Assembly (NCBI GenBank): GCA_030704615.1
Contig: CM060731.1
Span: 46,686,001-46,750,000, forward strand
DNA: 64,000 nucleotides
From: Takakia lepidozioides
Lineage: Eukaryota > Plantae > Bryophyta
Direction of reading: 5' to 3'
The translations under genes and the position numbers were made by a program. The notes under the pieces were generated by a model. It ran no database searches. It saw only the letters and a list, made by a program, of their open reading frames with translations, and was not told the DNA's origin. Below are positions 1,351-36,900 of the stretch, in pieces. Each line of letters starts with the position of its first letter. Position 1 is the first letter of the stretch.

Positions 1351-2329
1351 AATTCTTTGTCATCGACACTTTTTCTTGTTCTAAATCCTATACCTGCTTG
1401 CTAAGTGTCTGATTCAATAAAATTTCAATTTAATGATCAAACTTGTTAATATTGACGCTTTGACTCAAACTATAACATCAACCATGTTACAAATATAATG
1501 ATATCTCAATTGTATCAGGCTAGACCCCCTTGACAATTAAATTGACTATAACTAATATGTCATCCAATTTGTATAATGATAACTTCTTAAAAGTCTCCGC
1601 TACAATTTAAATCTCAATAATCAACAGTTTTTCAAGCCCTTTGATTTTGACATTTCTAAGTTAAATGATTGAATATGATTAGATATATTTGTTTTTAAAT
1701 ATTATTTATTGATTAATTCAATTTAATTCAATTTTGTCGTATATCAAGTTTGGTCCGGATTTAAGCGAAAAGTCCGGATTTAATTAAAATGGTGTTTTAA
1801 ATTGTCATCTCGATTTTGAGAAGTAGTTTAATAACACCATAATTGGTGTGGTTGGTCGATTTAGGAGATCAAGAGGCTGTCGCAATATCCCCCATCTGCT
1901 CCAGGGGCCTTCCTTCTCAGTTTTTGAATCCTGCATATCCACCATTTTTCCTCATCTACACCAGCAGCTATGGATGTTGGCACCCCTTGGCCTCCTCGTG
2001 TTCTGTCTACCACTGTTGTTTCTCATGCTTCTAGTCGACCATCCACGAGCCATCCACCCTGCAAGCAGGTTTTTCATTGCTATCAATCCACAGGGATTTG
2101 AAGGTAATCTTGTGCTTAAAATCCGGCCTTCACGGATGACAATCGATAGGAAACTCCCTCCCTTGGGCCTTACCATTAGTAAAGGGGAAATTCCCTCATT
2201 TACCATTAGACCCTTAACTCTAAATGTACGACACGTGTCCAAAATATAGCATGTACTCTTAATTATTTTAAAAGTTTTCTAATGCAAAAAACCACCACAT
2301 TGCATGTCTGTTTTTAATGCCAAGCAGTT

Positions 2330-2414
2330 TGTCGTGCGCATACATATCGCTACACAACTACATCGCTGTCCAAACCACACCACACATATATGCACAATAA
2401 AGTAGTCTGCCACA
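2330..2414 (-). repeat. Terminal repeat A, outer copy (85 bp, TG...CA)
   Basis: Near-identical (1 mismatch seen) to 2764-2848. Confidence 0.95.
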
Positions 2415-2415
2415 A

Positions 2416-2761
2416 TGATAAGAGCTTGAAGGACACACACTCCAACACAAGAAATATGAAATCCATCGCTATCACTCTTGAAATGAAGTCGAGCCAGGGG
2501 CACCCCAAGCTATGGGGACTCCACCCCACAACAACCTACATCTACATAAGCACACACTCAATCCTAAACCATGCAGGAGCTCGGTCGCGCAGGCTCAACT
2601 CGAGAGAGATGAGCCGCGACTGCCGCTCTCGTGAAGATAAGACGGACCAGGTGTCAAACTAAACTTGACACCTGATTTAACACTTGACCTAAATCCAAGT
2701 GTTAAATACAAATAACTAGTTTATTCTAGCTGTTTTCACACTGTGCTTATTTAACTTGACA
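2416..2761 (-). repeat. Terminal repeat B, 3' copy (~346 bp, TG...CA)
   Basis: Direct repeat of 13939-14294. Differences are mostly 1-nt indels. Confidence 0.95.
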
Positions 2762-2763
2762 GC

Positions 2764-2848
2764 TGTCGTGCGCATACATATCGCTACACAACTACATCGC
2801 TGTCCAAACCACACCACACATATATGCACAATAAAGTAGTCTACCACA
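2764..2848 (-). repeat. Terminal repeat A, inner copy adjacent to the PPT
   Basis: Direct repeat of 2330-2414, separated from repeat B by the dinucleotide GC. Confidence 0.95.
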
Positions 2849-2850
2849 AT

Positions 2851-2860
2851 CGCCCCCCTA
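2851..2860 (-). other. Polypurine tract (PPT)
   Basis: Minus strand reads TAGGGGGGCG-AT-TGTGG, a G-run 2 nt before the TG of repeat A. Confidence 0.8.
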
Positions 2861-3109
2861 GCTGGTGGATAGGTTCACCTTACCTTCCAGATGACTACAA
2901 GACTGTACATTGCCATAGCCGTACTACGTCCTCATCATTGTCCCGCTCGTACAAACTATATAGACCAAGAGGGCGGGTACAAGGACGTAGCCACACGTTA
3001 GTCGCCGTCTTGCAATCTGTGAACTTTGAAGCCAGCCTTCGGTATTCAAGGTATCCTGTAGCTGGGCCTTGCGTTGCTTGTTAGCCTTCCATGGTTGTAT
3101 CCACTCCCA

Positions 3110-3265
3110 CTATCCAATGCATTGTGGACATAACCATCCATCCGGAACCATCTCAAGAGGTGGAGTCAAGCATCCCATATGCCAACCTCTAGAGCACCGA
3201 TCACACACCAGCATGGTGGCTGCCCCTTTAGCAGACCACACAAACAGCACCTCCAAACCTGCAGA
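3110..3265 (-). CDS. PHD finger at the integrase C-terminus (frameshifted)
   Basis: MLVCDRCSRGWHMGCLTPPLEMVPDGWLCPQC matches the PHD consensus CD.C...(F/W)H..CL.PPL..VP.G.W.CP.C. Confidence 0.9.
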   Translation of the reverse strand, partial: SAGLEVLFVWSAKGAATMLVCDRCSRGWHMGCLTPPLEMVPDGWLCPQCIG

Positions 3266-4450
3266 TACCACTGCCAGGTTTGGGTCAATCCTGCCATCGA
3301 CATTCGGAAGGTGAAATGGCGCACAATTACGCACATGGTCCTTCCAAGTTATGCCATCCCGACCCTCCAAGACCAAGACGCTGAGGGCAAGACCTCTCGA
3401 ACCCTCAAAATAACACGTCCTGCAGTCACATCCAGGGTCGTAGGAGCAGTCTGCTGCAGATAGACATAGTCACCAGGGTTGAATCTCCGACCCCAGGACG
3501 ATAGCCCCACCACGTATGGTAGCATACCTCAACGTATCACGGTGTTGTGCAATGGCAAGGTTCTCGAAAGCCATGGGCATGACTCTTTGAACAACTCTGC
3601 ACGCTGCTCACATGCACGTGCCCACACGTCTGGATCGTCAAGGTTAAGAACTGTAGCAGCTTCTCTGCGAATGGATGTAGGCAAATCCGGCTCTCGGCCA
3701 AAGAGAAGAAAGTATGGTGAGAAGGAGGCAAGTGATGCTTGCTTGCTGAACCTGTAGCCCATGACTACCAGGGTAACTGAAGGTCCCAATCTCCTAGGTG
3801 TCCCTTCTGCAAGCCATACTTGCGCAAACCCCTTTTACTGTCTGAACAACTCTCTCTGCCAAGCCATCGGCCTCAGGATGATCCCGAGAAGTGGTGCGGT
3901 GGTCTATCAAGGCCTTGTCACACAAAGCCTGAAACTCCCCCAAGAACTCTCTCCCTTGGTCCGTGAGTACCTCAGCTGGAGAACCGAATCGCTAAGCACA
4001 CAATCCAAGAATGCATACGCAGCTCCCTCACTAGCCTTATCAGGCAATGGAACCAATTCAATCCACTTGGAGAAGTGCTCCACCATCACCAACACGTACT
4101 TGTTGTGGCGCATGGTCAGTGGCAACGGCCCTGCGAAGTCAAGACTCCACCTGTAGCCCAATCCCATGATCGGAAGAGGGTGCAATGGTGGAGTAGGGGC
4201 GTTGAATGAAGCACGCACCCTGTCACACACCATGCACAGCCACAAATTGTTGCACCTCTTGCACGACCACTTGCTGACTTGCCACCACGCCCTGCCACTA
4301 ACAATGCCCTTGCAGTAGAATAAGGAGCGTCGCACCACACAAATGCCCACCCAACTCCTCGTGGGCATGCCGCACTAACCGTGCCCGCTGTGTTGGGTGA
4401 GGCACAATCCTCACTCGACCATCCTCCCACACTCGGAGCAGGTGTGTCCC
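3266..4450 (-). pseudogene. pol: Gypsy DDE integrase (frameshifted)
   Basis: CMVC zinc pair, PLHPLPI, WSLDFAGPLP...KYVLVMVEHFSKWIELVPL, and GYRFSKQASLASFSPYFLLFGREP. Confidence 0.92.
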
Positions 4451-4799
4451 CTCCCACCTGAACCTCTTGGCTCGTTGTAGGATCCGATCCCTCTCCTGGA
4501 AGTCATAGTGGCTGCCGTGTCTCCACTGCGGAGGTAGTCCAACACAACTGAATCCTCATGTATATCTTTGGCGCCACCTGCTCATTGCTGGCCTCAGGGT
4601 CCTCAGACACTTGATCTACAGTCATCCCTGTTGTAGGTCCAACCTGGCCTTCCGCTGCCAAGATACACAGAAATGCAGATGCATGCCACGGGCACCATCT
4701 CCTCGTCCGTCTCACCATGCCCCGAGCTCCAGTGTCATCTGCTGGCTCGTGCATGGATTGCGACTCAACCCATCTGCATTTCGATTGACCAAACCCGGT

Positions 4800-6000
4800 C
4801 GATGCACCACCTGAAAGTCATACTCTTGAAGGATGAGCGCCCACCGTGCAAGCTTCCCCGTAAGCTTGTCTGACCATCAACCACTTGAGTGGTTGGTGAT
4901 CCGTGACAAGGGTGAAGAGATTGCCGTATAGATAGCACCTGAAGTGTGCCACGGCCCACACTGCAGCTAAGCATTCTCCCTCATATGAGCTATACTTAGA
5001 CTCTGCAGCATTGTTGAGCGGCTAGCATAAGCCACTACGAACTCTCTTCCTAATCATCCCACCTGTGTGAGCACCGCTCCAAGCCCCAGCATGCTCCAAT
5101 CTGTATGCAGCTGAAAAGGACGCCCCCTGATAGGTCGTCTCAAGATGGGCGCCGAGGTCACCTCGCCTTGAGCTCTTGAAAAGCTTGTTCTTGCTCATCT
5201 TCCCACTGCCACTCCTGGTCCACCTTGGTCAGCTTGGTTAGAGCCTTTGCAATGGCACTAAATCCCTTAACAAACCGTCTGTAATAGTTTGCTAACCCCA
5301 TGAAAGCTCGAACTCGGCTCACATCCGTGGGGCGTGGAACCTGTGCAATGGACTCTTACCTTAGTCTGCTGTACCCAATCCTCCAGGATATATCATGTGA
5401 CCCAGATACTCAATCTGGTTGTGGAAAAACTTGCACTTGCCGGATGTAACTTCAATCCGTGCGTCCTCAAGCGCTCAAATACCCCCTGAAGGTGTCTCTC
5501 ATGCTCCTCCACCGTAGCACTAAAGATGATGATGTCATCTATGTAGCACCGAGCAAAACTCCACCCCTGCTAGAATCCTGTCCATGACTCTTTGAACTCA
5601 GCGGGAGCATTTTAAGCCCAAATGGTAAGAACCGCCACTGGTATAGGCAATCCTTCCCGTGCTCATTGATCCCCCAGAATGCCGTCTTCTGCTTATCCGC
5701 CTCTTGATCGGCAACTGGTGATATCCGGATCGTAAATCCAACGTGCTAAAGACCTTGGAATGCCCAATGGCATCAAAGATCTCCTCTGGTGTTGGCATGG
5801 CATACCTATCGGACTTGGTCTGACGATTTACAGGCCGGTAATCACCGCACATACGTCTCTCCGTCCATTGCCATAGACATCCTTCTTAGCTGGCATCACT
5901 GGTGGCTGAAGCATACTCTCCACCAGAGAGCTCCACCAAACCTGCCTCCCAGAGATCTTGAGTCCTCATCTGAATCAAAGACCTCTCCATGTCACTGTAT
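4800..6000 (-). pseudogene. pol: Gypsy reverse transcriptase and RNase H (frameshifted)
   Basis: CGDYRPVNRQTKSDRYAMPTPEEIFD...FSTLDLRSGYHQ (5598-5852), CYIDDIII near 5525-5550, VRAFMGLANYYRRFV, and RNase H start PFQLHTDWS near 5100-5120. Confidence 0.93.
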
Positions 6001-6519
6001 CTATAGGGTTCCGAAAGATTGGCGTGTCAGTGGCCAACTCAATACGGATCTCTTGACCCTTCAGTGCTCACAAGTCCTTCAAACTGAAGGCAAAGCAATT
6101 CCTGTAAGCCCTCAGGAACCGCCGTATACGTCGTCTCTCTCCTCCGGTGACAATGGGTCCAATATCAGGCTCCCAATTGTCCTCCGTAACTGCAACCTTA
6201 AGTCCAGTGGGCTTAGAGGTAGAGGACGCGTCCCGTGGTTGCTATGCTGCAACCTCTTGAGCAGTACCCCCTTCCTGCTCAGTCAATGACAAGGCCTCAT
6301 CCTGCCCCATCATCTATCATTGAGAAACCTCCTCATCCATCACAGCTGCCTTCGCTGCCAACTCCCTCTGAACCTCGAGCACCTCCCACATGTGCCATGG
6401 ATGTCTACACCTCGTGGTCCTCACCGGCTCGCCCCCACTCGCTGCCTGTACCGTCTCGGTAGGCAGAGAGACCGTCAAGGGAAGTGCACTCCGCACTCTA
6501 CGTTGCTCAGCCATAGCCA

Positions 6520-7475
6520 AGCTGACAATCCAGGTCAAGCAATTGAGATCCATTGCTTGCCCCAACACCTGACGACGTGATGCCTCAGAAAGAGAAGGCA
6601 CCGCCGTGGTCCCAGTGGAAAACCCCATAGCCCGCTCTCGCTCGTCGGCCATTAGGCTCCACTAACTGCTGCAACTGAGCATCCCACAGGAGGCCAGGTC
6701 CACCATCCCGAAAAGCATGGGATCCTGGGAAGCTGAGCAGTGTGGTAATGCTGCTCGTGGTTGACCCACTCTGTTGACCACTGCCAAAGGCGAACGGTCA
6801 TCGTGTCTCACACGTTGAGACTGCCTTCCCGTGTCCAAAATGCCATCCACGGTGAGGTGTGCTGGCCGCTGCACCCCATCAAATGCACGCTTGAGCAGTG
6901 CAGGTGGCATCAAGTTAGTCCACCATAGTCGTGGACGATGAGCCCGTGACCCCACTGCAGCTGCATCCAGCAATACTGCTGACCCAAGCCACGACCGGAC
7001 TTGATGCACACTGGCCATCACCCTGGCCCCGAGAATCACCCATCAGTGGCACATTCTCAAAGATGTATGCCGGAGATACAGCCTGATGAAGCTGCAAGTG
7101 GCGTAAAATCCGCACCATCTCCCAAAACAGACCCGTCCTCGAGTCTCGCAATCCATTGCCATGCCCGGCTGATGAATGCCCTTGGCAGGGCCAACCTGCC
7201 ACTACCAGATCAATGGAGCCAACCCGCTCCAAATCCTGCGCCCCCAGCAACGCAATGTCTGCTGCAAGGCCTGCTGATATCCACGAATGCAGACACCGGC
7301 AACAACTCAGGGTGCTGCTGCACCATCTGAGCAACATGGCGCAGTGAGACGCGTCGTGCAGTCTCATCCCTCTCCACATACATGTAACGTCAAACTCGTA
7401 CACCTGCCTGCAGCACTGCAGCCAATCCAGTGCTGATCCCGCCAAATAAGTCCAGAAGGCATATGCCTTCATCCG
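6520..7475 (-). pseudogene. DNMT3-type C5 cytosine methyltransferase domain embedded in pol (one stop, several frameshifts)
   Basis: Motif I ICLLDLFGGISTGLAAVLQAG (~7405-7465), IV IDLVVAGWPCQGHS, VI YIFENV, VIII AHRPRLWWTNL, IX-X ERERAMGFSTGTT...SRRQVLGQAMDL. The motifs are in unpermuted I-X order. Confidence 0.92.
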
Positions 7476-7849
7476 GGTGCCACACAAGAGGTGTGGTGTC
7501 AATGGCGACAACTGAGGTGGCCCTGGTACAATCACCGCATCTCCTCCTCTCCTGACGGTACAAAAGCTTCTACCCAAGCTTGTTGCACCCGTCCATCAGC
7601 AGCGTACTGCAATCCTTGCTCGTACCCCACAACGGAGTGTGAGCAACCATGGCGGGCAACTCCGCCGTACCATGCATGTCAACCTGCTCTGCTGGAGGTG
7701 GCACATCCTCTGCATGGGCATTGCCTTCTAGCAACTCTCCAGGCCAGCTGACTGCAGCTGTGAAGGCGGCTAGTGTTGGCATCTTGCCCCGCTGAGCAGC
7801 TGCAATACCCCCAATGAATGTCACAGGGAGCTGTGCACGGCGACCATCC

Positions 7850-8200
7850 CCTGACTGCCATCCAGGCCTGTAGGATGCTGACTCCTCCCAGAAATCCAGG
7901 GTGAAGCCCATGGGGTATAACACTGCCCCACCAACGAGGACATCGTAGGAGACCGCGTCTGTCACAATGGCCTTGGCTCGCATCACTGAGCCATCTACAG
8001 GATGATCCGGCTGCAGTCTAATAGCCAACTGATGCCGTGTCATGCCCGAGCCTGCTCTGATCCTCCCAGAGATGTCTGTATCTGGAAAGGACAAGGCTCC
8101 ATATCCGCCTCCATGAGGCCCAAACCTGCAATAGCAGCTCTGCCCAACATCAGTGGCTGAGCTCCTGAGTCCAACAAGACCCGCAGTGGCCCGGTACTTC
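7850..8200 (-). pseudogene. pol: Retroelement aspartic protease (frameshifted)
   Basis: Catalytic RVLLDSGAQPL (~8150-8185, alternative frame) and C-terminal SYDVLVGGAVLYPMGFTLDF. Confidence 0.85.
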
Positions 8201-8554
8201 TTGCCTGCCGGTCCACTCAAAGTGAAAATGCCTCCCTGGTTGTCTAACAAGACAACTCCAGGTGTCACCATGGCGCGCTCAAAGGCTGGCCTAGCTGGCA
8301 GCTCCGTCAACCTGGCAGCTGCAGCTTGCCAGGGCGCAGCCGTGGCAGTCTTGACCCTCAAATCCGAGGATCCCTCTGCCACTACACCTTCCACTAACTC
8401 CGCAGAAGATGAAGTGACCTCCCCACTCTCACAGAGTGTTGCTGCTAGTCTGAACACTGCAGCTGGCCTCACCCCCGGCGTCGCAATCATGGTTGCCGAG
8501 AACAATGGGGGCTTGACACACAGAGGTGGCTGCCCCAAAAACACACCGGCTGCA

Positions 8555-10416
8555 CTAGCCTTGGTAGCAGGTGTCAGTGTTGCACGTGTAGCTCTCCCAA
8601 TGGCATAGTAACCCCGCCTCGGTAACAGTCGGGCGAGAACTAGGTGCCATGGATGGCGTTGACACTGTCTCCGCCAAGGTGAATGACTGAGGCAGCCTTG
8701 CCTGACGGCTTGCCTCCCCACGTTGTGGATCCAACTCCACCTCTGCACCTCGTGGCTCAGAAACTCGTGTTGCTCCTCGAGTCACGGCTGCAGCAGACTC
8801 CACCTGCTCTAATGGTAGTGCTGCTCCGCACATAAATCCCATTCCGCCCATATCTCCTCCCTCAGGAGCAGGAGGTGGGCCATCCCGCCTGGGAGCCGGT
8901 ACCGCCTGAGCTATAGCCATGGCAGCGAGCCTCTGCTCTAGCTGCTGAAGCCGATTGGCCATGCCTTGGTCAACACCCTGACCTCCGCGTCCTTGGCCAT
9001 GTGGAGGTTGCCCTTGGCCTGCACCTCGTGCCCGACCACCTCGTCCTCTTTGGGCTGGTCCACCTCGCCCCCGGCCACCATTGATCCCTTGGAACTGGCC
9101 TGGGCGCAACTCAGGATGCAAGTCATAACACTGGGCATCTCCATGCCCATACTTGCCACAATGCCCACACTGCAACTGTGCAGGTTGTGCTTGTGCCGGC
9201 CTTCTGCCACTCTCTGGGCAATCTCTCTTGACATGGGGTCCTCCACATGTCCAACATATCACCCCTGGTTGCTGTTGGCCTGCAAAAGATGCCACGGGCC
9301 TCTGCACCTGAGGTCCCCTGTAGGCTCCATGGAACTTGGGCTGGGCAACCTTGCCCCCCTGACCACGCTGCTGGGCAGTCCCTTGTGCTTGTGGGCTGAC
9401 AGCTGTGCCCCGTACAGGCATGTCCTTGCCAAATCCAATTGTAACAACTCGTTCCTCCACCATGTTGAGCTCAATCCGCTCAGCCAGCAGAAACACATCT
9501 GCTAATGTGGGTTGGGCTGCTTGTAACAGGGTTGCATCTCGCACCCTTCTCTTGAGCTCCTTGTCCAGAATTCCATACCAAAACTGGATTGCCTGAGCTT
9601 CAGTAACCCCTTGGGTCACACTTATCAAGCGCCTCATACGAGTGTACGCCTCTCGCAGGCTCTCACTGGGTTTGCGCTGGAAGTCTTGCAAACTTCGCAG
9701 CTTCTCTGTCCGTACACCTTGGTAGTTCCTCCGCAACTCCTGGAAGAACTCCACCACCGGGTTGAATCTAGGCACATGTGTTGTAGCTGTGGCAGGAGGA
9801 GTAGTAGCACCTTCTGAACTGGTACCACCGGCAGAAGTACCAGCACTACCTGCTCCACTACTAGTGCTGGCAGTGGGAGCTATTGGTACTGATGCAGCTA
9901 CTGGTCGCGTCATGCCTCGAGTAATGGAGATGTAGTCAGGTGACCAATACATCCTCCACTCCTCAATCTCTGCTTCATGTCCTCGCCTGAACTCGTGGTA
10001 ATCGTCCATAGGCGGGCCTTCCAAATGCTGGAACAGTCCCTTCCATGCCATGAATGGGGTGAATAGATGTGGATTGCGCATCTGCTGCAAATCACACCAG
10101 CTGTCGAACTCCTGGATAAAGTCATCCAACTCGATTGTGCCCACAGCTCCAGAGTACCTACGAGGCCCTTGGTAGCTCCATACATCTCCTCCATGTCGTC
10201 CCACAACAATGGCGAATGAAAGTGCACACCTGTTGATGAAGCCTCCGAGCCTGTGTCTGACTCTACAGTAATTGAGGGTGGCGGTGAAGGTGGTCTGAAC
10301 CGAATACCTCGTCTTGTGAACCCACTCTCACTGTTACTGCCTGTAGCCGTACTCCCCTCAAAACCCTTGGGTAACTCCGTAATGACACTCACAATGTGCA
10401 CCTCCTCCAGTGACAC
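8555..10416 (-). CDS. gag: Gag with two zinc knuckles (N-terminus in a shifted frame, 9910-10416)
   Basis: Retrotransposon gag motif LQDFQRKPSESLREAYTRMRRL and knuckles CWTCGGPHVKRDC and CGHCGKYGHGDAQC. Confidence 0.9.
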
Positions 10417-11679: not shown

Positions 11680-12402
11680 GCAGGGAGTACATCCACCAAT
11701 TTGTCTCTCATATAGACCAGCACAGGTTCTAGAGACAGGATTGTGGATCTTTCATGGCACTCTCACACTCTAAAAATTCCATAGATTTTTAGCAGAGTCC
11801 CCAAAGCAGAAACCAGGTTTAGATAGGTAGATTTCCCCTTTCTGCAGCTATCCACCCAAAAACTGAGTCAAACGGAGTCCATTTGACAAAGTTATGACCA
11901 ACCAGGCTCTAAATCATTTAAATTATATCAAAGTTTTTTTTTTTTTTTTTAACACCAAAACGTTCCCGCCATTAGAACCGTTCCCGGGTTTCATTTGTGG
12001 TTACAGATGCACCACAGACTTGCTCGCTTAGTGAGCTGCTTTGCTCCAGCGACGACTCTCGAGCTCGGGTGGATGGCTATGGCGATGGTGGTGGCCTGTG
12101 CAGCGTCAGGCATCTATTTCCCGTGATGCAAGCACTCGAGCCATCCCTAATGCAGGGACAAGCCCTGATGATACTCTGTCAGAACCTGGTGGGCAGCTGC
12201 CATCTGCACTTGCTCCCTCTTCAGACAATCTTCGGACCTAGTGTCAAATGTGGAAGTGGTGAAGGAGCTTATTGACAAAGGCAACTGTGTTGGACTATCC
12301 ACAAAGTGGAGAGTAACCAGATCAGCTTCGTCATTTAGTTGAAGCTTGGAGCATAGGTCTGCATACTCCGATAGGGCAAGGCACTATCTCAATTCAGGTA
12401 GC

Positions 12403-12619
12403 GATCATGTTTGCTTTGACCTCCATCAAGGGAGTGGAGCGCCGTTTCGCTAACCTGGTCTGCAAGAAGGCGGACGTCGACACCAGCAAGAGAGCTGGTG
12501 AGCTGTCGGGTGCGGAGCTGGAGAACTTGATGGTGATTGTCGCGAATCCCCGGCAGTTCAAGATACCTGACTGGTTCTTGAACAGGAAGAAGGATCACAA
12601 GGACGGACGTTATTCGCAG
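12403..12619 (+). pseudogene. RPS18: Captured fragment of 40S ribosomal protein S18 (uS13), antisense to the element
   Basis: [72 protein letters not shown] is unmistakable plant RPS18. Both termini are missing. Confidence 0.93.
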
Positions 12620-13189
12620 GTCAAACTTTCTTCCAGACTGATCCAGGTCCTGTCAGTCCAAGTAAGTAACCTCTCCTAGAGGAGAACTAAAAGAGATTAC
12701 GGGGAGGTAGGTTACATATGCACACAACTGGAGCTGGAACACCTGCCCCCCTGATCCACCCCCACCATAACCTTGATAGGCAGAAGTAGCAGGGTACGGG
12801 TTTCCAATTAAGCCGTAATTCAGCTTCGAAGATGTTCAACTAGTGAAACACACAGCAGCTGAGAAAGATGCAACTGATGAAAGCCCTGCCACTCCTCACA
12901 CCTCCACGCTCCCGGCATGCTCACCAAATGAAAGAAAACCAGAAGAAAACTCCCCTTCACCTGCAGAGTCCAGCTTTTGACTTTGTCTCGAGCCTGTTAC
13001 ATTCTCAGAGATTTTACTATTCCACTCAACCATTTCACATCAAGCACACAGGACAGCCTGAAACCTAAACTTCCCACGTTATTATGCAAGTTTGACGGGC
13101 GGGATGTACAATCGGAATGGACTATCCAATCTGCAGACCAAAATCCTTTTCTTCCCAGCAGAATCGAGTCCTTGAGTCCGAGTCCCCCT

Positions 13190-13720: not shown

Positions 13721-13849
13721 CTCCAAAGCCTCTGGTGACTTGGTAGCTTTAGCGACTGCAATAACAGTGGCGGCTCCGGCATCGTCATCCTCCAGGCGTT
13801 TCAGGGCACGCTGAATCTTGTGATCACATTCAATGATATGCTTCTCAAA
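13721..13849 (-). pseudogene. LUC7: Captured fragment of U1 snRNP factor LUC7-like
   Basis: FEKHIIECDHKIQRALKRLEDDDAGAATVIAVAKATKSPEALE resembles plant LUC7-family LIVECDRKI.RALKRL.EEDAKAAIAISVSEVTQSPEILE. Confidence 0.75.
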
Positions 13850-13921
13850 CTAAGCACTACTTACACATAGGTAATCTTGCAAGTGCTAACCCACAACTCC
13901 TACCTTGCACTCACAGGTAAG

Positions 13922-13938
13922 AGCTGATCTCTCTCGAG
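13922..13938 (-). other. Self-complementary primer-binding site (Tf1-like)
   Basis: Minus strand CTCGAGAGAGATCAGCT directly abuts repeat B and is complementary (16/17) to 14129-14145 inside the same repeat. It does not start with the TGG of a tRNA PBS. Confidence 0.8.
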
Positions 13939-14294
13939 TGATAAAGAAGCTTGAAAGGACATACACTCCCAACACAAGAAATATAAAATCCATCGCTATC
14001 ACTCATTGAAACTGAAGTCGAGCCAGGGGCACCCCAAGCTATGGGGACTCCACCCCACAACAACCTGTATCCCTACATAAGCACACTAAAACCTAAACAC
14101 ATGCAGGAGCTCGGTCGCGCAGGCTCAACTCGAGAGAGATGAGCTGCGCGACTGCCGCTCTCGTGAAGATAAGACAGACCAGGTGTCAAACTAAACTTGA
14201 CACCTGATTTAACACTTGACCTAACTCCAAGTGTTAAATACAAATAACTAGTTTTATTCTAGCTGTTTTCACACTGTGCTTATTTAACTTGACA
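13939..14294 (-). repeat. Terminal repeat B, 5' copy (356 bp)
   Basis: Direct repeat of 2416-2761, TG...CA. Confidence 0.95.
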
Positions 14295-17094
14295 AGTTCT
14301 ATGTGTTGCACCGTTTCCCTGACCTCACACGAGCTTGCATACACGTTGATGTGCATTGTCACAAATTGGCGAGGGGGAACTCGCGGGAGGCTGCCCACGA
14401 GGCAGAGCAGCTTAAGTTGAGACCTGGTGCCAAACCCAAACAGATACAACTGCAGGCCGCCAAAATTATGTCGAAAGATGGCTCTGACAGAGTTCCTCTC
14501 GACGAGAAGAAAATGGAGGCATTGCTGGAGTCAGTGTCCCACGTCTGTTCACCGAATGTCCGAAACCACATTGTCTCCTGCAAACAAAGAATTGGGCGAG
14601 GCTCGGATATGCACTCCATTCTAGAGGTGAAGCGACGATGTGCATATGACTACATTCATGGAAGTAGGTTTCCAGGACAAGGGGCTGAGGCAGATCGTTG
14701 TTTCATATTCAAAATGTCCACGTGAGGGCCTGGTAGCGGCGTGGAACTGGTCCACCGGATGACGAGTGGGGACTTGTCAAACAGTTGGGTCATGTTCGAC
14801 CATATCAAGCGAATTACAAATCACCAGTAGGTGACAATGGGTGCACATGTCTACGACACCCACTGTAGGATGCTAATGACAATTGCTATTTGTGAGATGA
14901 AAGGGGGGGACACACAATCGGAGATGCTTCTTTGGCAGGGAATAAACGAACAGATGGCCAGGGCGGGATTGCCCCCGCCCAATTTCCGTGGTTTCATGGC
15001 GGACAACGCACAAGCAAATTGGGCTGCCATCCGAAGGGTGTACGGTGAATACCCCAATGTTCTGATGGAAGGCAATGAAAGATCTTGTGGGTTCCATTTT
15101 CTGCAGAGCTTGTCATAGTACACAACCAGGCTCGTGGCGCTAGATTTCAGAGAGGAGCACCGTTCCATGTGTCTTGCGTGGAAGCGTGCTCCTACCTTGG
15201 ATGATGCAGAGACACAGTTTGCATGTATACGGGCTTGGTGGACAACGTCAGGTGCTGTAAAGAAATCAGACGAGGGAACAATGGTCAGTTGGCTAGCATG
15301 GTGGCATTATTGTTTCCTCCAGTTTGACGACTATATGCGGGAGGTGAGTTGGACGAATTTGCGTCCCGTTGAATATTATGCTAGTCATTATTTGTAACTT
15401 GCTTATAACCTCAGTATGTGCATGTGGAGGAAATGTGTCTAGACTCCGACACCGATATGCCGACAACAAACATGGCCGAATCAGTACATTCTTCCTGACG
15501 TGCCTCCTCTGTGGCGCATCTGGGGGACATCCTCATTGCCACAACGGAGGACATTGTGAGGTCAATTATGCAACAATGCAGGTACAACGAGTTCTTGAAA
15601 GGGAAACAGTGGGGCTTAGGGCCGGACAGGCATGAAATGCTGATGTGACTGCCTCCAGATTGAAGAATCCTCGGAAGTGGGCGGCAGCCTTGCGAGAGGG
15701 CCTTCGAGACACGCCATTGCTTCGAAGAGGCCAACACTTGGAATGAGATGTTCACACCTGTCCAATGAGACGAAGACTTGACGAGGCACCTGGCGGAGAA
15801 GAGGATTCATGGGGAGCTGACAAGAATATTCGCACGCTCCCTCGTGGTCCCGTGATGTTGCCCAAGGAGGTCTCGTCGAGCACCACAAGTCCTGCACATT
15901 CAAGATCGACATCTCCTTTGAGCACAGGGTACGTGCCCGAGGAACATAACGAGCCATATGTAGTAATGCAGTACAACATACCCATTGTGGAGCCAAGAGT
16001 GTCGGAGTCACAGTGGAGAATTGCAAGGACATTGTCGGCATTTCGAGGGAAGTGCTGCGCTATCCGAGTGGATACGAGAGCACGCTGTTGTGAGACGATT
16101 CGGAGGAACCCACACGGTGCTGTATCTGCACCTTGTTTCAGCGGCATATTTTTGACTCCCAGATTTTCTCACGCCACAACATAAACGTTTTGGTTCTATA
16201 GGCACGAATAATGACTTGTGTATTTGGCAAGCCCAAGTACGAGATTCAGGGAATGCCGGAGCCTCCGGGCGTCTGGCCTGTTGCACCGGGTTGCAACCTC
16301 TCTTAGAATGAGGTGGATGCTCTTTCTGCAGCAGGATTTCGAATGGTGCAACACACAGACGTCCCTGCCCACCCATTTCCAGTTCCTCAGACCAGCCATT
16401 GCAGACTGCGAGGTCCAGTAGAGACGGATTGGACAATTCTGCACATCCCACAATGCGATTCAGAAGAGTGAAGAGACGACACCCTCCCAACAAGTTGAAT
16501 GAGACTGCCAATGCTCTTGGGATGGCTTGCACTATTCAGAGCTCCGTGGATGTACCCGCACCCGGCCTTGGGCGTGTTTATCGGATGGCAACGGCCGGCT
16601 CAGCTGTACGCGACGACGTATACACAATTATAATCGGAGTGGAGCCGACCTGCAATTGTACGGACTTCTCGTTGATGGAAGCAAAGAAGGTGACAAAATA
16701 TTATCCGTGCAAACATTTGTATTACATTTACCTGAAGAGGTTGAGGATGAACTTGACTATTTATGACTTTGTTCATGCACCAGCGTTGAGCGTGAACGAG
16801 CTGCACAAACTCCTCCGCCGGGATTCCAGAAATCATTGATGGGGCAAAGGGAATCCACCATATGGATATTTGCAATTGCATTTTTATGCATTAGACTTTG
16901 TTTTGCAGTGTATAATTTAAAATGCACCCCAAAACTCCAGGAATGAGACAGGCAATATTAAAGTAATCTATTTTAAACACTATGGACTTCTGGATATCCG
17001 TTGACGTCCAGTGGCAATTCAATGTCGAAACAGAATCCATAATAAGATGGCGGCAGGAAAAATAAACTGTCTAAGTCCCAACATATACGGGAAC

Positions 17095-18484: not shown

Positions 18485-20040
18485 GGAAGGGCGCTCGGAT
18501 GAAATCGTCTCGGGGGGAGAGGCTGACACGTGGCTGCCAGAGATCATCCCCAAGATGGAAAAACGGCGCCGAATTTCCATCCAAGGGCACTCGAATGAAG
18601 TCGTCTCGGGGGGAGAGGCCGACACGTGGTTGCCAGAGATCATCCCCCGGATGGAAAAACGGCGTCGAATTTCCATCCAAGGGCGCTTGGATGAAGTCGT
18701 CTCGGGGGGAGAGGCCGACATGTGCCTGCCAGAGATCATCCCCCGGATGGAAAACGGCGCCGAATTTCCATCCGAGGGCGCTCCGTTGAAGTCGTCTCGG
18801 GGGGAGAGGCCGACACATGCCTGCCAGAGAACATCCCCCGGATGGAAAAACGGCACCGAATTTCCATCCTACAGGTAAGTTGGAGCTCGGACGGATGGAA
18901 AATCGGCGCCGAATTTCCATCCGAGGGTGCTTGGATGAAGTTGTCTCGGGGGGAGAGGCCAACACGTGCCTACCAGAGAACATCCCCCAGATGGAAAAAC
19001 GGCGCCGAATTTCCATCCTGTAGGTAAGTCGGAGCTCGGTCGGATGGAAAACTGGCGCCGAATTTCCATCCGAGGGCGCTCGGATGAAGTCGTCTGGGGG
19101 GGAGAGGCCGACACGTGCCTGCCAGAAAACATCCCTCGGATGGAAAAACGACGCCGAATTTCATCTTGCAGGTAAGTCGGAGCTCGGACGGATGGAAATC
19201 CGGCGCCGAATTTCCATCCTGCAGTTAAGTCAGAGCTCGGACGGATGGAAAACCGGCGCCGAATTTCCATCCGAGGGTGCTCGGGTAAAGTCGTCTCGGG
19301 GGGAAAGGCCGACACGTGCCTGCCAGAGATCATCCCTCGGATGAAAAAATAGCACCAAATTTCCATCTTTGGACGCCCGTATGGAGCCGTCATCAACCAT
19401 TTCAGTCGTTATATGACATTTTTCGAGTTTTTTTTGTATAATCTGACCCTCAATTTAGAGTTTTCACCCTGTGGGCCACTTTTTTTGTACGTTATCCCTA
19501 CAAATGTCGGAAATTCGGCGCTGGTTTTCCATCCGAGGGAGCTCCAAGTTCTATTGCGGATGGAAATTTGGCGCCGGTTTTCCATCCAAACGAGCTCCGA
19601 CGTACCTGCAGGATGGAAATTCGGCGCCGGTTTTCCATCCGACCAAGCTCTGACTTAATTGCAGGATGGAAATTCGGCACCGGTTTTCCATCCGTCCGAG
19701 CTCCGACCATGGAAATTTGGCGCCGGTTTTCCATCCGACCGAGCTCCGACTTACTTGCAGGATGGAAATTTGGCACCGGTTTTCCAGCCGGGGGAGCTCC
19801 GACTTACCTGTAGGATGGAATTCGGCGCCGGTTTTCCATCCAGCGGCTTGTGGATGATGCCATCTCGGGCGGAGCGAGGGCTAGGTGGCGCTCCTACTTC
19901 ATCCGCTGGATGGAAATTTGGCGCCGTTTTTTCCATTGAGGGGCTTGTGGATGATGCCGTCTCGGGCGGAGCGAGGGCCAGGTGGCGTTCATACTTTGGC
20001 GCCGTTTTTCAATCCAGCGGGCTGTCGATGAAGTCTCGGG
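18485..20040. repeat. Compound tandem array of ~30-bp palindromes forming a large imperfect inverted repeat
   Basis: Units of roughly 97 bp and 53 bp, each containing GGATGGAAA(AAC/TTC)GGCGCCGAATTTCCATCC. Arms 18485-19370 and 19505-20040 are in opposite orientation. Confidence 0.9.
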
Positions 20041-23839: not shown

Positions 23840-24745
23840 TGGTTGTGAAGAAATGGCGAAGTCCTTGGGGTGACTGCCCCCGAGACAGGGAAAATGACGC
23901 CGAATTTCCAGTCTCGGTGGAGAAATGGCGTCGAATTTCTAGTATGGGTGGCAGCCACCCCTGGGACTTAGCCATTTTCGGGGAACGGAACTGGAAATTC
24001 ACCGCCATTTTTCCTAGCTGGGTCGAAAAGTGGCTAAGTCCCAGAAAGGACTAGGCCCCAACCTGGAAAAATGGCGCCAAATTTCCAGTATCGGTGCCAG
24101 CCACCCCCCGGACTTAGCCATTTTCGGGGCCAGGAACTGGAAATTCGGCACCATTTTTCTAGGCTGGGTCCGAAAGTGGCTAAGTCCCAGAAAAGGCTGG
24201 GCCCCAACCTGGGAAAATGGCGCCGAATTTCTAGTATCGATGCCAGCGCTGTCCGAGACTTAGCCATTTTCTGGGCCCGAAACTGGAAATTTGGCGTCAC
24301 TTTTCCAGGCTGGGTCCGAAAGTGGCGAAGTCCCAGAAAGGGTTGGGCCCCAACTTGGAAAAATGGCGCCGAATTTCCAGTATCGGTGCCAGCCACCCCC
24401 GGGACTTAGCCATTTTCGGGGCCCAGAACTGGAAATTCGGCGCCATTTTTCCAAGCTGGGTCCAAAAGTGGCTAAGTCCCAGAAAGGGCTGGGCCCCAAC
24501 CTGGGAAAATGGCGCCGAATTTCCAGTTTCGGTGCCAGCCACCCTAGGGACTTAGCCATTTCTGGAGCCCGAAAGTGGTCATTCGGCGCCATTTTTCTAG
24601 GTTGGGCCCCAAAACAGCTAAGTCCTAGCATGGGCTCCCTCGCCCTCGGAAAAAATGGCGCCGAATTACCACTTTCACTGCACGGCACCCCAGGGAACCG
24701 GGACCATCGAGCCCAACCCGCATAGAATTTCGGCGCCAATTTTGC
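23840..24745. repeat. Intronic tandem array (~148-bp unit) with two oppositely oriented GGCGCC-centred palindromes per unit
   Basis: Alternating CTGGAAATTCGGCGCCATTTTTCC and GGAAAAATGGCGCCGAATTTCCAG, about 5-6 units. Confidence 0.9.
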
Positions 24746-27629: not shown

Positions 27630-30340
27630 CTACTTGTTCACGTCATGCATAACAGTCAGAAGCCTCGCGATGTCATTCCCAGGATCCAGAACCATTGCCT
27701 CCACAGCACAATGCTTGTCCTTGTCTTTTGAATGGTGTTTTGCAATGTACCCCATCCAAGCAAGAAGGCGGTGGTTCCCGTCCCAAACATAGAACATGTG
27801 GTTGCAGAACTGCTGAGTGTTATGTCCAAGGAGCAGGGAGTCCTCGAACTTGTCATTCACATCCTTCCAGCAATCATCCCAGTTGTCCGTTATCTCTGGG
27901 CTCACTTTTGTGCTGTTACCATTTATATCCTTCAGTGAGACGTAGAATACTTGTGCACCCATTCTGTACCCGTGCACGAAATCTGTTTCCAACTTGGTAA
28001 TGTCATGCGATAGTGGAGGACGAACAACAGACATGGAGATCATGCGGCATAGAGGGATTTCAAGGCGTCCTCCAGATATGATCATGTCCCTAATAACCTC
28101 CTAGGAATTTACCTTTTGATATGACATAAGCTCTTTCACCTTGTCAAGGTAGTGCAATTCAGGATCGTCTGTGTCTTCGCTGTTCTCAGAATTCTTCGTG
28201 GAGTCGTCCCTTTCTCCAGAGCCCTTCTCTTCTGTTTCTCCCTGCTTAGATTTTGCATTTTTCTGCATACACAAAACCCAAAATAACAACATTCAACTGG
28301 TATTCTGGAAACAGACATTTTGAAACAATGATGATCGGTACCGACCATCACTTTTTCTTCTAACAAATGAATGGATAGTTTACTGTGTCTCCCAATGCAC
28401 TTTCACTTAGTTCTCACCAGTATGCGATGATCGGTGGCGGCCATCACAATCCACATTTTGCACACAAGAAGTTTTCCGAACTCATATTAAAAATGACAGT
28501 CAACGAATAGTGATGATCGGTACCGATCATCACTTTATGCATGTACGGAAGAAGACTTCAGACACCCTGTTGTCTTTCTTAAAATTCAACTGATAGTGAT
28601 GATCGGTGGCGATCATCAGTATCTGCCATCGAAAATGACACACCATAAACTATCAAACCACATTTGGAATGACAAGGATGATGCAAGCGATGTTATGTAC
28701 CGATCATCACAACAAGACAGACCTGCGATACACACATCCATGAGGTCTGAATGTGATGGTCGGCACCGATCATCACTTGAGAGACAACATGCCTGCCTTT
28801 CAGTGCATGAGACATTGACTTGGAAGCGATGATCGCCACCGATCATCACTTTCCTGTCACTACAATTCCACAAGAAAATAAGTGGGTTGGACCTTGTACA
28901 TCGTAAAGCAAAGTATTGCATCGGTACTCTCCATTTGGGGGTAATATCCAGTCACCACAGAAACTGATGATCGGTGCCGATCATCATAATAAGACTGCTG
29001 GGATACACAGCCCATGAGGTCTGAATGTGATGGTCGGCACCGACCATCACTTTTTTCCAGAATGCTTGCATTTCAGTGTATGAGACATTGAGCAAAGAAA
29101 TGGACTTGGAAGCGATGATCGCCACCGATCATCGCTATTCTGTCACTACAATTCCAGATGTGAATAAGTTGGATTGACCTTGTATATCGTAAAGCAAAGG
29201 ATTGCATCGCTACTCTCCATTTGGGGGTTATGTCTAGTCACCACAGAAACTGATGATGGGTGCCGATCATCACATTCAGATTGCCCTGGGATACACAACC
29301 CATGAGGACTGAATGTGATGGTCGGCACTGACCATCACTTTCCTGAATGACAATGCCATTCCCCCCTTCCTCTGAACAAGAAGGGAGTGGAGCTGAGAGC
29401 GAAGATCGCCACCGACTATTGCTGTTACATCATTGCAAGATGCTGCTTAAGTTCCCTAGCACTCTTTCATCACCATGAAATTGGCCTCATAGGCTTACAT
29501 AAAGCAATTGCGAAGGTGATGGTTTGCACCGATCCTTACATTCCTCGTGAAACGTATACTGGCCTGCCTGCCTGGCTTTTTGAATCTACTGCCTGTCTGC
29601 CTTCCAGCTACATTACTCTGTAAAGCGATGATCGCCACCGATCATCGCTTTTCTCACCTCTGGGTACCATCAGTAAAGAGGAGGAAGTGTTTGTGAGGCA
29701 ACTTATGGATCCCTTCGCCTTCTTTGCCTTCTTGGCTGCATCGCTCGGATCGCCCTCTTCTGCTTTCCTCTTCCCTTTTACATTGGACTGCACACAAGAT
29801 ACACCATGTTCTTGAATCCCAGATGGAAGGGAAAACATCCAGACTAATGAAAACAGAAGTATGTGGATATGTAGTGCTCACCATTTCTATTTGATGTAGG
29901 GTTCACAAACTTCCTCCCTATATGGCGTCCTCTTCTCCTCCCCCTGTTCTCTTCTCTTCGGGAATGAACTCAGCTGGCACTGTCTGGTTACCTACGCTCA
30001 TTGCTCCAGCCCTCGCAACGACTGCGGCGACCTCACTCTCACTTCCCACATGCTCTTGTGCTTCACCTGTCTCCAAGTTCACATGCTGCCTAAGCGCTAC
30101 ACCTTCTTGCATCCGACGCCTCGTCATTTTCTCTCTTGATCTCAGCCTCTCTCTAAGTGATGTGAAATATAATGACTTCCTTATCTTCCGAACCGGACAA
30201 GGAACCCTCTCCAGTTTGGTTGCCTCTCTTCCTGTAAGGGCAAATCAAGAAAGATGAACAGACTCGCTTTCTTGCGCGGTTCCGTCGTTTTGGGAGTGTC
30301 CCTGGAACCGTCAGATTCCCTCTTGCGTGTCCGATGCATG
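27630..30340 (-). pseudogene. ParB-like domain protein exons upstream of the methyltransferase domain
   Basis: LEIPLCRMISMSVVRPPLSHDITKLETDFVHGY...FYV...MFYVWDGNHRLLAW. Upstream exons are Lys/Glu-rich. Premature TAG at 28101-28103. Confidence 0.72.
28328..29650. repeat. Intronic array of ~15 24-bp palindromes (GTGATGATCGGTACCGATCATCAC consensus)
   Basis: Copies near 28328, 28426, 28510, 28596, 28688, 28753, 28827, 28964, 29027, 29113, 29250, 29315, 29399, 29515 and 29626. There is a higher-order ~287-bp duplication. Confidence 0.9.
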
Positions 30341-35783: not shown

Positions 35784-36900
35784 TCACAGCTTACCTATCA
35801 AAGCAGCCATGTGAGCATCCATGCTATGAAATAAAGAATTCGTGTCTTTGAAACTAGCTACCAACTCTTTGCTGTTTTTCACCATGTCACAGAACATGGT
35901 TGACAAGTTATCGATGGATCTGTTCTTTGCATGTCGAGGGTTTATTGGCTGCAAGGTAGGCTTTACATTTGCAGCCTCAGCATTTAAGTCTTCACATTCT
36001 CTATGTCTGGAATCAGGGTTTTCCAGATCTTCTCCTGCGGATGCAAAAGCATGGTTCTTAACACGGGCTCTATCTTCATGCCACATATCCATTGCATAAA
36101 ATAAAACACATGATTGCTTCCGATTATGGCCTGACTGACTATTGGCACGCTTGTCCTCCTTGTACTCAGCATATAGTGTGCCATACTTCTTCCTGCAAGC
36201 CTCTGCTGTTTTGGAAAATCCTCTACAGCTTGAAACCAGCCTGATATGCAGCTTTATCCACGTATCAACTCCTGTGACAAAAAGAAAACACAATAAAGCA
36301 TGAAAGTGTTTTGTAGACCTCAACGAAGACAATGTAAACCTCATGAAACACATAAAACCAGCAAAGTAGAACTTGACCAATTGAGAAGACAAAAATCTGA
36401 ATAACAGAAAAAGAATTACATACCTTGTTTCTTAGCATTTCTCATAAACTCCTCGTTCATCTTTCCCCTCAGGCTGATCAAAGTCTCAACTTGTGCATCT
36501 GTCCAATTTGCCCCTCGTTGAGACTCCACTTTCTTCTCTCCTTTGCTTTTCTTCCTAGGCTTTGACTTCGGAAGTGACACTCTAACCACCTCAGTAATAT
36601 CTTCCAAGTCAGAAACAAGAGGAGTGGCTGCAGATCGCCCCTTCTTCTTGGGCTTAGGAAGCTGAGGGAGTTCGGGCAATTCAGTAAGACCTGCTTCCAT
36701 GTCATGGTGGACAGAAGTGGTTACAACTCTTACAGAGCCTCTTGGGGCAGAAGCAGGATAGTGCGCCGCTCCAGTAGGTTGAGATTCCAAAACAACAAGG
36801 GCTGGGGCCCTTCTTACAAGTTGCTTCTTAACAGGTCCTGCAATCATTTCATCAAAATTATCACCATCTTCAACAGGAATAGGTCCCATTGAATGAAGCA
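35784..36900 (-). CDS. Myb/SANT-like trihelix DNA-binding protein (intron 36272-36423), probably transposon-associated
   Basis: NWTDAQVETLISLRGKMNEEF...KQG / VDTWIKLH...KTAEACRKKYGTLYAEYK...LFYAMD, then a C-terminal coiled coil. The splice is in phase. The start is uncertain. Confidence 0.8.

Follow-up and report, generated by a model that had tools for sequence, protein, structure and literature searches.

How does a retrotransposon with no tRNA-type site behind its first repeat begin reverse transcription, and are the DNA ends set by that priming event the ends that it integrates? Both questions are raised by an element on the minus strand (14294-2330) of the window, the 64,000-nucleotide stretch of Takakia lepidozioides DNA analysed here. 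An earlier note had proposed tRNA-independent, Tf1-like self-priming for it, from a match between the nucleotides directly inside a 5′ repeat and a segment of that repeat. Judged by its predicted domains, the element is a Ty3/gypsy retrotransposon with a C5 methyltransferase and a PHD finger, and its parts follow in the order X1, primer-binding site (PBS), 3.7-kb leader, gag, protease, C5 methyltransferase, reverse transcriptase (RT), RNase H, DDE integrase, PHD finger, polypurine tract (PPT), Y1, GC, X2 and Y2 (Table 1).

Table 1. Features of the element and its flanks, in window coordinates.
Feature	Position	Strand	Basis
Left copy of 4-bp target site duplication, AACT	14295..14298	-	flanks; empty site in contigs
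Repeat X1; runs from TGTC, the element's left end, to the PBS	13940..14294	-	repeat comparison
Predicted self-primer, segment inside X1 complementary to the PBS; putative RNA 5′ end	14128..14145	-	complementarity, shuffles
Arm predicted to pair with 14131-14122, competing for the last four primer bases	14015..14024	-	predicted fold
Predicted PBS, non-tRNA type; 13926 mismatched in the window copy, paired in most other copies	13922..13939	-	complementarity, contigs
Antisense fragment of a gene for ribosomal protein S18, inside the long 5′ leader	12383..12622	+	Pfam PF00416, E 2.7e-21
Gag-like region	8474..10177	-	similarity to relatives
Protease-like region, frameshifted, limits approximate	7500..8517	-	tblastn to P0005/P0027; aspartyl protease match in relative L082
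C5 cytosine methyltransferase domain, frameshifted, limits approximate	6525..7470	-	PF00145, E 9.5e-13
In-frame TAG then CAA, between the gag-protease-methyltransferase and RT parts, conserved in relatives	6242..6244	-	comparison with relatives
RT and RNase H region, frameshifted	4349..6241	-	similarity to relatives
DDE integrase region, frameshifted	3379..4350	-	PF00665; full catalytic core in relative L082
PHD finger, integrase C-terminus	3113..3250	-	PF00628, E 4.3e-9
PPT	2851..2863	-	conserved in four families
Repeat Y1; starts at the PPT, ends GACA	2764..2850	-	repeat comparison
Internal palindrome GACA-GC-TGTC at the Y1/X2 junction, right and left ends with a 2-nt spacer; putative integrase cut site	2758..2767	.	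repeat comparison
Repeat X2, 94% to X1; end fused directly to Y2	2417..2761	-	repeat comparison
Repeat Y2, 98.9% to Y1; ends GACA at the element's right end	2330..2416	-	repeat comparison
Right copy of 4-bp target site duplication, AACT	2326..2329	-	flanks; empty site in contigs

The coding region of the window copy is interrupted by frameshifts and stops. Its RT is Ty3-type, with Ty3 RT as the best PDB match; the short methyltransferase fragment of the window alone did not separate DNMT3 from M.HhaI, and the methyltransferase of relative L082 had DNMT3A/B as its best PDB matches. An in-frame stop followed by CAA was present in nine of the 11 places found (TAG in seven, TAA in two), namely in the window and in L002, L004, L007, L016, L020, L022, L046 and L082. 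UAG-CAR-YYA is a leaky-stop context, which the stop-CAA arrangement resembles, and the methyltransferase would then be made at the level of Gag.

Alignment of gag brought in at least 80 metagenome loci and alignment of pol added L082 and L083. These last two represent an element with intact ORFs inside an assembly labelled as a cyanobacterial metagenome, likely eukaryotic DNA binned with it. The 3.7-kb leader had no match among the at least 80 gag-aligned loci, and the viral contigs scanned for relatives yielded only one unrelated element, L081. Relatives by gag, with up to 71% identity, were found in Marchantia polymorpha, Sphagnum fallax and Calypogeia fissa, many of them with PF00145, and comparison by RT extended the list to Coleochaete scutata and Closterium. 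The Marchantia relatives include Mp4g09160, Mp8g17980, Mp6g11220 and Mp2g26090. An RT tree was built from 26 proteins, all of them retained (midpoint root; relative P0024 standing for the element; no Tf1 or Tcn1 sequence); in it, nine PHD- or DNMT-bearing and five unlabelled rows were set apart from six chromodomain-bearing rows (100/99), with the Coleochaete scutata protein inside the RT clade of the window lineage.

The complementarity on which the earlier note rested was found as described. Minus-strand 13938-13922 (CTCGAGAGAGATCAGCT), the 17 nt inside the repeat, is complementary to 14145-14129 at 16 of 17 positions, the sole mismatch being 13926:14141, and the addition of pair 13939:14128 raises this to 17/18. 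Dinucleotide shuffling of the repeat placed the match far beyond chance, with a best PBS match of 14/17 and none at 16 (0/3000). Across the whole window only the two repeat copies matched the PBS with two or fewer mismatches, and when the 4833 nt upstream of gag were scanned blind for inverted repeats, this pair ranked first. The absence of a TGG tRNA-type site was likewise borne out, as no TGG follows the repeat at the window PBS. In contigs from public sequencing runs, one of which (run X1) may come from the sample of the window itself, position 13926 had the pairing base at a depth of 1575/2420 in run X1 (23 contigs), 268/385 in run X5 (nine contigs) and 28/28 in run X7 (two contigs); no contig of run X9 aligned to the region. 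Because most of this contig depth has the pairing base, the full duplex is probably the norm of the window's family.

In families C and D the repeat edge is unambiguous and the PBS starts with an A outside the repeat. The window edge is probably at 13939/13940, since this gives the same register as in those two families. The paired 3′ end falls at the repeat edge, as had been claimed, but this edge probably lies one base further out than the 13938/13939 of the earlier note; and the PBS does adjoin a repeat, but that repeat is only part X of a split set and not a whole LTR.

Transcription would start near 14140-14145 if the segment is the RNA 5′ end. No TATA box was seen by eye 25-35 nt upstream of 14145, and a promoter scan gave 0 sites under a bacterial model that is not applicable here. 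A search of 13800-14400 against Rfam returned a single sub-threshold miRNA match, taken as chance. ARAGORN, run on the window and 83 loci, made six tRNA-like calls, none of them a normal tRNA, and their best match to any PBS was an uninformative 8/11.

Comparison across relatives was based on 39 X1 copies (38 loci and the window), which by their flanks represent 30 distinct insertions; two lacked an anchor and 28 were scored. The 38 loci are those of the at least 80 gag-aligned loci with a scorable X1, the other 42 being left out for little upstream DNA or a partial or unrecognisable X, and in most of these 42 the blind scan gave no clear inverted-repeat signal. Among the loci listed, the mean number of Watson-Crick pairs over the first 11 positions was 9.7 in family B (n=13), 9.6 in family C (n=14) and 11 in the window; exchanging PBS and partner between families gave means of 4.5-5.8, and sliding one against the other by 1-3 positions gave 3.0-3.9. 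When G-U pairs are counted, 25 of the 28 scored insertions listed have at least 9/11 pairs, and the remaining three (L012, L026 and L064) have only 5-7/11.

The PBS starts with ACTCGAGAG in the window, ACTCAAAGA in family B, AATCACCAA in family C and ACTTGACAA in family D, so that four related families have four PBS sequences, each complementary to its own repeat in the same place and register. In the window family, B and C, each of the first 13 positions has a Watson-Crick majority pair, with nine of the 13 changed on both sides between these three, and family D is paired at 13/13 with its fourth sequence. RNAalifold recovered the PBS/primer duplex in families B and C and showed no two-sided changes in it within either, so the covariation rests on four family-level points. 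A tRNA could not follow such changes in the PBS, and a primer copied into the PBS in each cycle would. Since the four PBS sequences each track their own repeat, a fixed tRNA primer is unlikely for these families. The pairing, kept through two-sided changes between families and always at the repeat edge, supports tRNA-independent self-priming as the best reading, and we consider it very probable that the 5′ end of the element's own RNA primes reverse transcription.

The repeats bear on the second question. All six complete relatives among the loci listed share the X…Y-X-Y layout of the window, and an exact 4-bp duplication lies outside TGTC…GA(C/T)A in 7/7 complete elements. Y-X-Y was also seen in the more distant family of L083. 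In the window, the target (14295-14412 and 2283-2329) is itself a high-copy repeat; the empty site is therefore visible, as contigs joining both flanks over one AACT. At the Y1/X2 junction, GACA-NN-TGTC has a 2-nt spacer at 12/12 junctions among the loci listed, GC in seven of them (L031 and L035 counted as one insertion). The X2/Y2 junction joins the end of X1 to the beginning of Y1, in 9/11 junctions listed without gain or loss of a single base, and two (L035 and L049) are too decayed to tell; L025, L034 and L055 were judged by eye after an anchor shift, and the X end for L083 was taken from L082. Given the edge register of families C and D, X ends in TATC, TTTC, TTTG or (T/C)TC, and Y starts directly after the PPT with ATTG, AGTT, GTTT or CTTG; these primer-defined ends carry no TG…CA. 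The primer-defined ends are thus fused inside the element, and its outer ends recur inside it as a palindrome.

Other readings were rejected. X alone does not form an ordinary LTR pair, as there is no duplication at the X2 end and the PPT precedes Y; an 87-bp duplication around a solo LTR is at odds with a layout that recurs in all complete relatives; and the circular contig of L082, likely an assembly collapse, is not proof of a DNA circle. Differences of X2 (2417-2761) from X1 are mostly 1-2 nt deletions that are filled in other contigs. Some of these deletions and of the pol frameshifts may be assembly errors, and the copy may be younger than 94% implies. Among the loci listed, X comes after Y1 in 12 distinct cases and flanking DNA in eight (L001, which has no PPT, and L028 and L029, which end too early, are omitted). 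Forms with a single Y after the PPT and then flank (X…Y) are L008, L010, L014, L015, L019/L056/L070, L033, L039 and L080, with duplications that are exact in L014 and L033, 3/4 in L039 and L070, and 2/4 in L056. They could be one-repeat circles, products of Y-Y recombination or assembly collapses.

The priming site fixes the start of reverse transcription, and therefore the cDNA ends are not the integration ends. The earlier note was probably right about how the site would work but overlooked that it marks an end that integrase does not use. We infer that reverse transcription makes the repeat Y-GC-X, and that end-to-end joining of this molecule, followed by opening in the PBS-side repeat, gives the integrated form. 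Transcription would begin near 14145, inside X1, and the first 13-18 nt of the RNA would pair with the site just 3′ of X1 through the conserved complementarity. By analogy with Tf1, RNase H would free the primer and RT would extend it into X. Plus-strand priming at the PPT would then give a linear cDNA with Y-GC-X at each end. The right primer-defined end would be joined to the left PPT-defined end to make the junction that is seen with no bases gained or lost. Integrase would cut GACA-GC-TGTC in the PBS-side repeat with a 2-nt stagger and insert the opened molecule, giving the X…Y-X-Y that is observed, bounded by TGTC and GACA and flanked by a 4-bp duplication. Cutting with a stagger of this size produces the CA-3′ ends and 2-nt overhangs of processed integrase substrates. 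Cleavage of palindromic 2-LTR junctions by integrase has been described for foamy virus and HIV-1 (PMC1180852, PMC4372172; see also PMC1905944).

Taken as a whole, a self-priming Ty3/gypsy element whose DNA copy is end-joined and opened at an internal palindrome before insertion is likely to be the explanation of this locus. For the join-and-open route itself, in which integrase opens the joined copy at the palindrome, the balance is somewhat in favour. One observation does not fit it. With its two equal palindromes, a closed 2-LTR circle would be expected to yield the mirror product X-Y-X…Y as well, yet X1 was preceded by Y in 0/30 distinct insertions among the loci listed, an absence that the model leaves unexplained. 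The intermediate would have to be asymmetric, for example with the plus strand run across the join or with a DIRS-1-like splinted join.

The same absence counts in favour of the strongest alternative, which accepts self-priming and does without the cutting of a free, end-joined cDNA. Here the RNA would read through Y2, the X2/Y2 junction would act as splint or template in the manner of DIRS-1's internal complementary region (ICR), and template switches would give a branched or linear intermediate exposing only the PBS-side palindrome. This would account for the one of two possible permutations being seen, with no X-Y-X starts among the insertions listed; the precision of the X2/Y2 junctions (9/11) fits templating better than repair; and the ICR is essential in DIRS-1, whose cDNA consists mostly of linear single strands according to the account in PMC7192593. 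However, no complete route could be drawn in which priming at the window PBS copies Y2 from RNA, and the single shared 2-nt spacer between GACA and TGTC reads as the trace of one staggered cut in continuous DNA. We regard this alternative as improbable, and we return to the end-joined, integrase-opened copy as the preferred reading.

Predicted folding bears on whether the duplex acts as a primer. The RNA 14145-13900 folds with a predicted -94.5 kcal/mol (z -4.1), and in the window copy only 13 positions pair with the PBS. The primer's four 3′ bases have a PBS-pairing probability of 0.00-0.05 whatever the 3′ limit, being diverted into a competing helix with 14024-14015, and the outer four PBS/primer pairs are lost when more downstream RNA is folded. 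In ten well-preserved, hand-picked relatives the mean probability is 0.88-1.00 over the first 11 pairs and the window-type diversion is absent. The window copy is thus, in these models, a weaker case for self-priming than its relatives because its fold diverts the primer's 3′ end; the competing helix may reflect decay, work as a switch or point to a shorter primer. Adding 150 nt of upstream sequence abolished the duplex in 5/11 elements, a result too mixed to place the RNA start. Set against the Tf1 'pretzel', families B and C have a predicted central duplex and a short adjacent duplex and the window copy has the competing helix; the third, PBS-downstream duplex was not evident in the folds of B, C or the window copy. 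X also contains a 14-bp hairpin upstream of the primer segment (14208-14178, minus strand), and family D has a hairpin overlapping its primer segment.

The hiding of the primer's 3′ end in the window copy could be taken to mean that the duplex is structural, a packaging, translation or dimer signal, with a tRNA fragment or other host RNA priming at or near the site, and half-tRNA primers do exist in plant elements, as reported in PMC6317226. We consider this quite unlikely. In four families there are four PBS sequences, all of which begin at the repeat edge and find their match in the family's own repeat, the window PBS has no TGG, and the PBS edge is the point at which X2 and Y2 are fused, that is, a cDNA end. 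It is also very improbable that the complementarity plays no part in priming and merely records a short inverted duplication or template switch by which a piece of the repeat was copied to its edge, despite the low complexity of the PBS (a GA run) and the other hairpins in X, as position and register are kept in four diverged families out to relatives with ~58-66% RT identity, an element without another primer site would be unable to replicate, and the pairing, shuffle and covariation counts already largely refute it.

Self-priming by the 5′ end of the RNA therefore stands as our reading, and it invites comparison with Tf1, where the first 11 bases are the self-primer and RNase H cuts between bases 11 and 12 (PMC7175516; see also PMC4600332 and bioRxiv 10.1101/2022.12.06.519325). 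Self-priming is predicted for 83% of Tcn1 elements, which have a 5-bp target duplication in 100% of cases (PMC6317226, Additional file 5). As in Tf1/Tf2 of Schizosaccharomyces pombe, Tf1/sushi and Tcn1, the window PBS lies directly after the 5′ repeat, complementary to an inner repeat segment in self-primer geometry. Unlike Tf1/sushi-Tcn1, the window element has a PHD finger at the integrase C-terminus and no chromodomain, and it and its relatives make a 4-bp and not a 5-bp duplication. The RT of the lineage also falls apart from the six chromodomain-bearing proteins (100/99, in the tree without a Tf1 sequence), the duplex in the window lineage is 13-22 nt long, unlike that of Tf1, and, unlike in Tf1/sushi, the primer-defined end is not the integration end and the element carries a C5 methyltransferase. 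The earlier label 'Tf1-like' thus holds for the way of working but not for membership; the element is not a Tf1/Tcn1 member because it lacks the chromodomain and differs in duplication length. If the lineage lies outside the chromoviruses, its self-priming would likely have had an independent origin. TAR elements (Ty1/copia), in which self-priming is predicted in 89%, are also outside Tf1/sushi (PMC6317226); the window element resembles them in this but is of the Ty3/gypsy and not the copia type. Phygy and Selgy, non-chromovirus Ty3/gypsy elements of moss and clubmoss, have ordinary LTRs and PBSs for tRNA-Trp and tRNA-Ala, as described in PMC6317226. The window element is like them in its 4-bp duplication and lack of a chromodomain, and unlike them in having neither a tRNA-type PBS nor an ordinary LTR pair.

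A close match by description is KnitGypsy-Dnmt3 of Klebsormidium nitens (de Mendoza et al. 2018, PMC5890265), whose A-coding-B-A-B repeats are given in the legend to Fig. 1e. Both have gypsy domains with a DDE integrase, a Dnmt3-related methyltransferase in the polyprotein and the A-coding-B-A-B order, the K. nitens element being set beside ours from its published description only. In its accessible parts that paper describes neither a primer nor a target duplication, a palindrome or a mechanism, and K. nitens is the sole host mentioned; relatives of the window element, in contrast, occur in Marchantia, Calypogeia, Sphagnum, Coleochaete and Closterium. Split direct repeats of the A…B-A-B kind, with an internal junction equal to the joined outer ends, are also found in PAT-like/Ngaro tyrosine-recombinase elements, as outlined in PMC7192593. 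Unlike these, the window element has a DDE integrase with a 4-bp duplication, a PBS and PPT, and a Ty3-type RT; a Pfam scan of 12 of the element's ORFs in the window and of both intact L082 ORFs gave no tyrosine recombinase match, and the rve integrase is present.

The proposed opening step has parallels. In the circle junctions of IS911 and IS30, a DDE enzyme opens a palindrome of abutted ends and the product integrates. The cleavage of foamy virus and HIV-1 2-LTR junctions likewise has a DDE enzyme opening a palindrome of two abutted ends and integrating the product, as we propose for the window element. In retroviruses, however, the palindrome forms where the ends of the reverse transcript meet, and its cleavage is a side route, whereas the palindrome of the window element is internal to the repeat, at ~90-115 nt from the PPT end, and its cleavage would be the sole route. 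Integration through joined ends was once proposed, then dropped, for retroviruses, and the present lineage offers a natural case for the old question of whether integration can normally proceed from joined LTR ends. We would give about an even chance to the broadest reading: a streptophyte-wide Ty3/gypsy lineage in which RT-made ends are uncoupled from integrase ends, and which self-primes, fuses its cDNA ends precisely and integrates only through a GACA-GC-TGTC cut, with an obligate end-joined intermediate.

Some of this is already known. Self-priming itself is, in the form of Tcn1, common in mosses, and, as far as the accessible sources go, a single figure legend already gives the A-coding-B-A-B order. 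The accessible part of a 2026 preprint on LTR elements that carry methyltransferases (10.64898/2026.05.21.726589) does not cover priming or repeat order. In the literature searched, with most subscription papers and Repbase reports outside its scope, we found no account of self-priming, a 4-bp duplication, an internal palindrome or fused primer-defined ends in this lineage. Because self-priming is common in mosses, the signal alone would be of moderate interest; it matters because it fixes the start of reverse transcription and so separates cDNA ends from integration ends. For the DIRS-like repeats of Gypsy-Dnmt3 elements, which the accessible sources mention only in that legend, it also suggests a mechanism that can be tested, and relatives in Marchantia polymorpha, a laboratory plant, make tests feasible. 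LTR finders that require paired TG…CA LTRs would miss or mis-bound such elements.

Other parts of the window contain further repeats. Several nested LINE-like copies with RVT_1 and endonuclease matches lie at 46032-60327 (minus strand). Tandem and inverted tRNA-like units with a 2-nt anticodon call, possibly a SINE, occur at 58374-58737 and 61203-61564. A weak Myb/SANT-like match at 35787-36431 (minus strand) is below the Pfam cut-off. Tandem arrays with units of ~96/149, 146 and 60-80 nt were found at 18487-19996, 23851-24696 and 28318-29655, one of them with an inverted partner.
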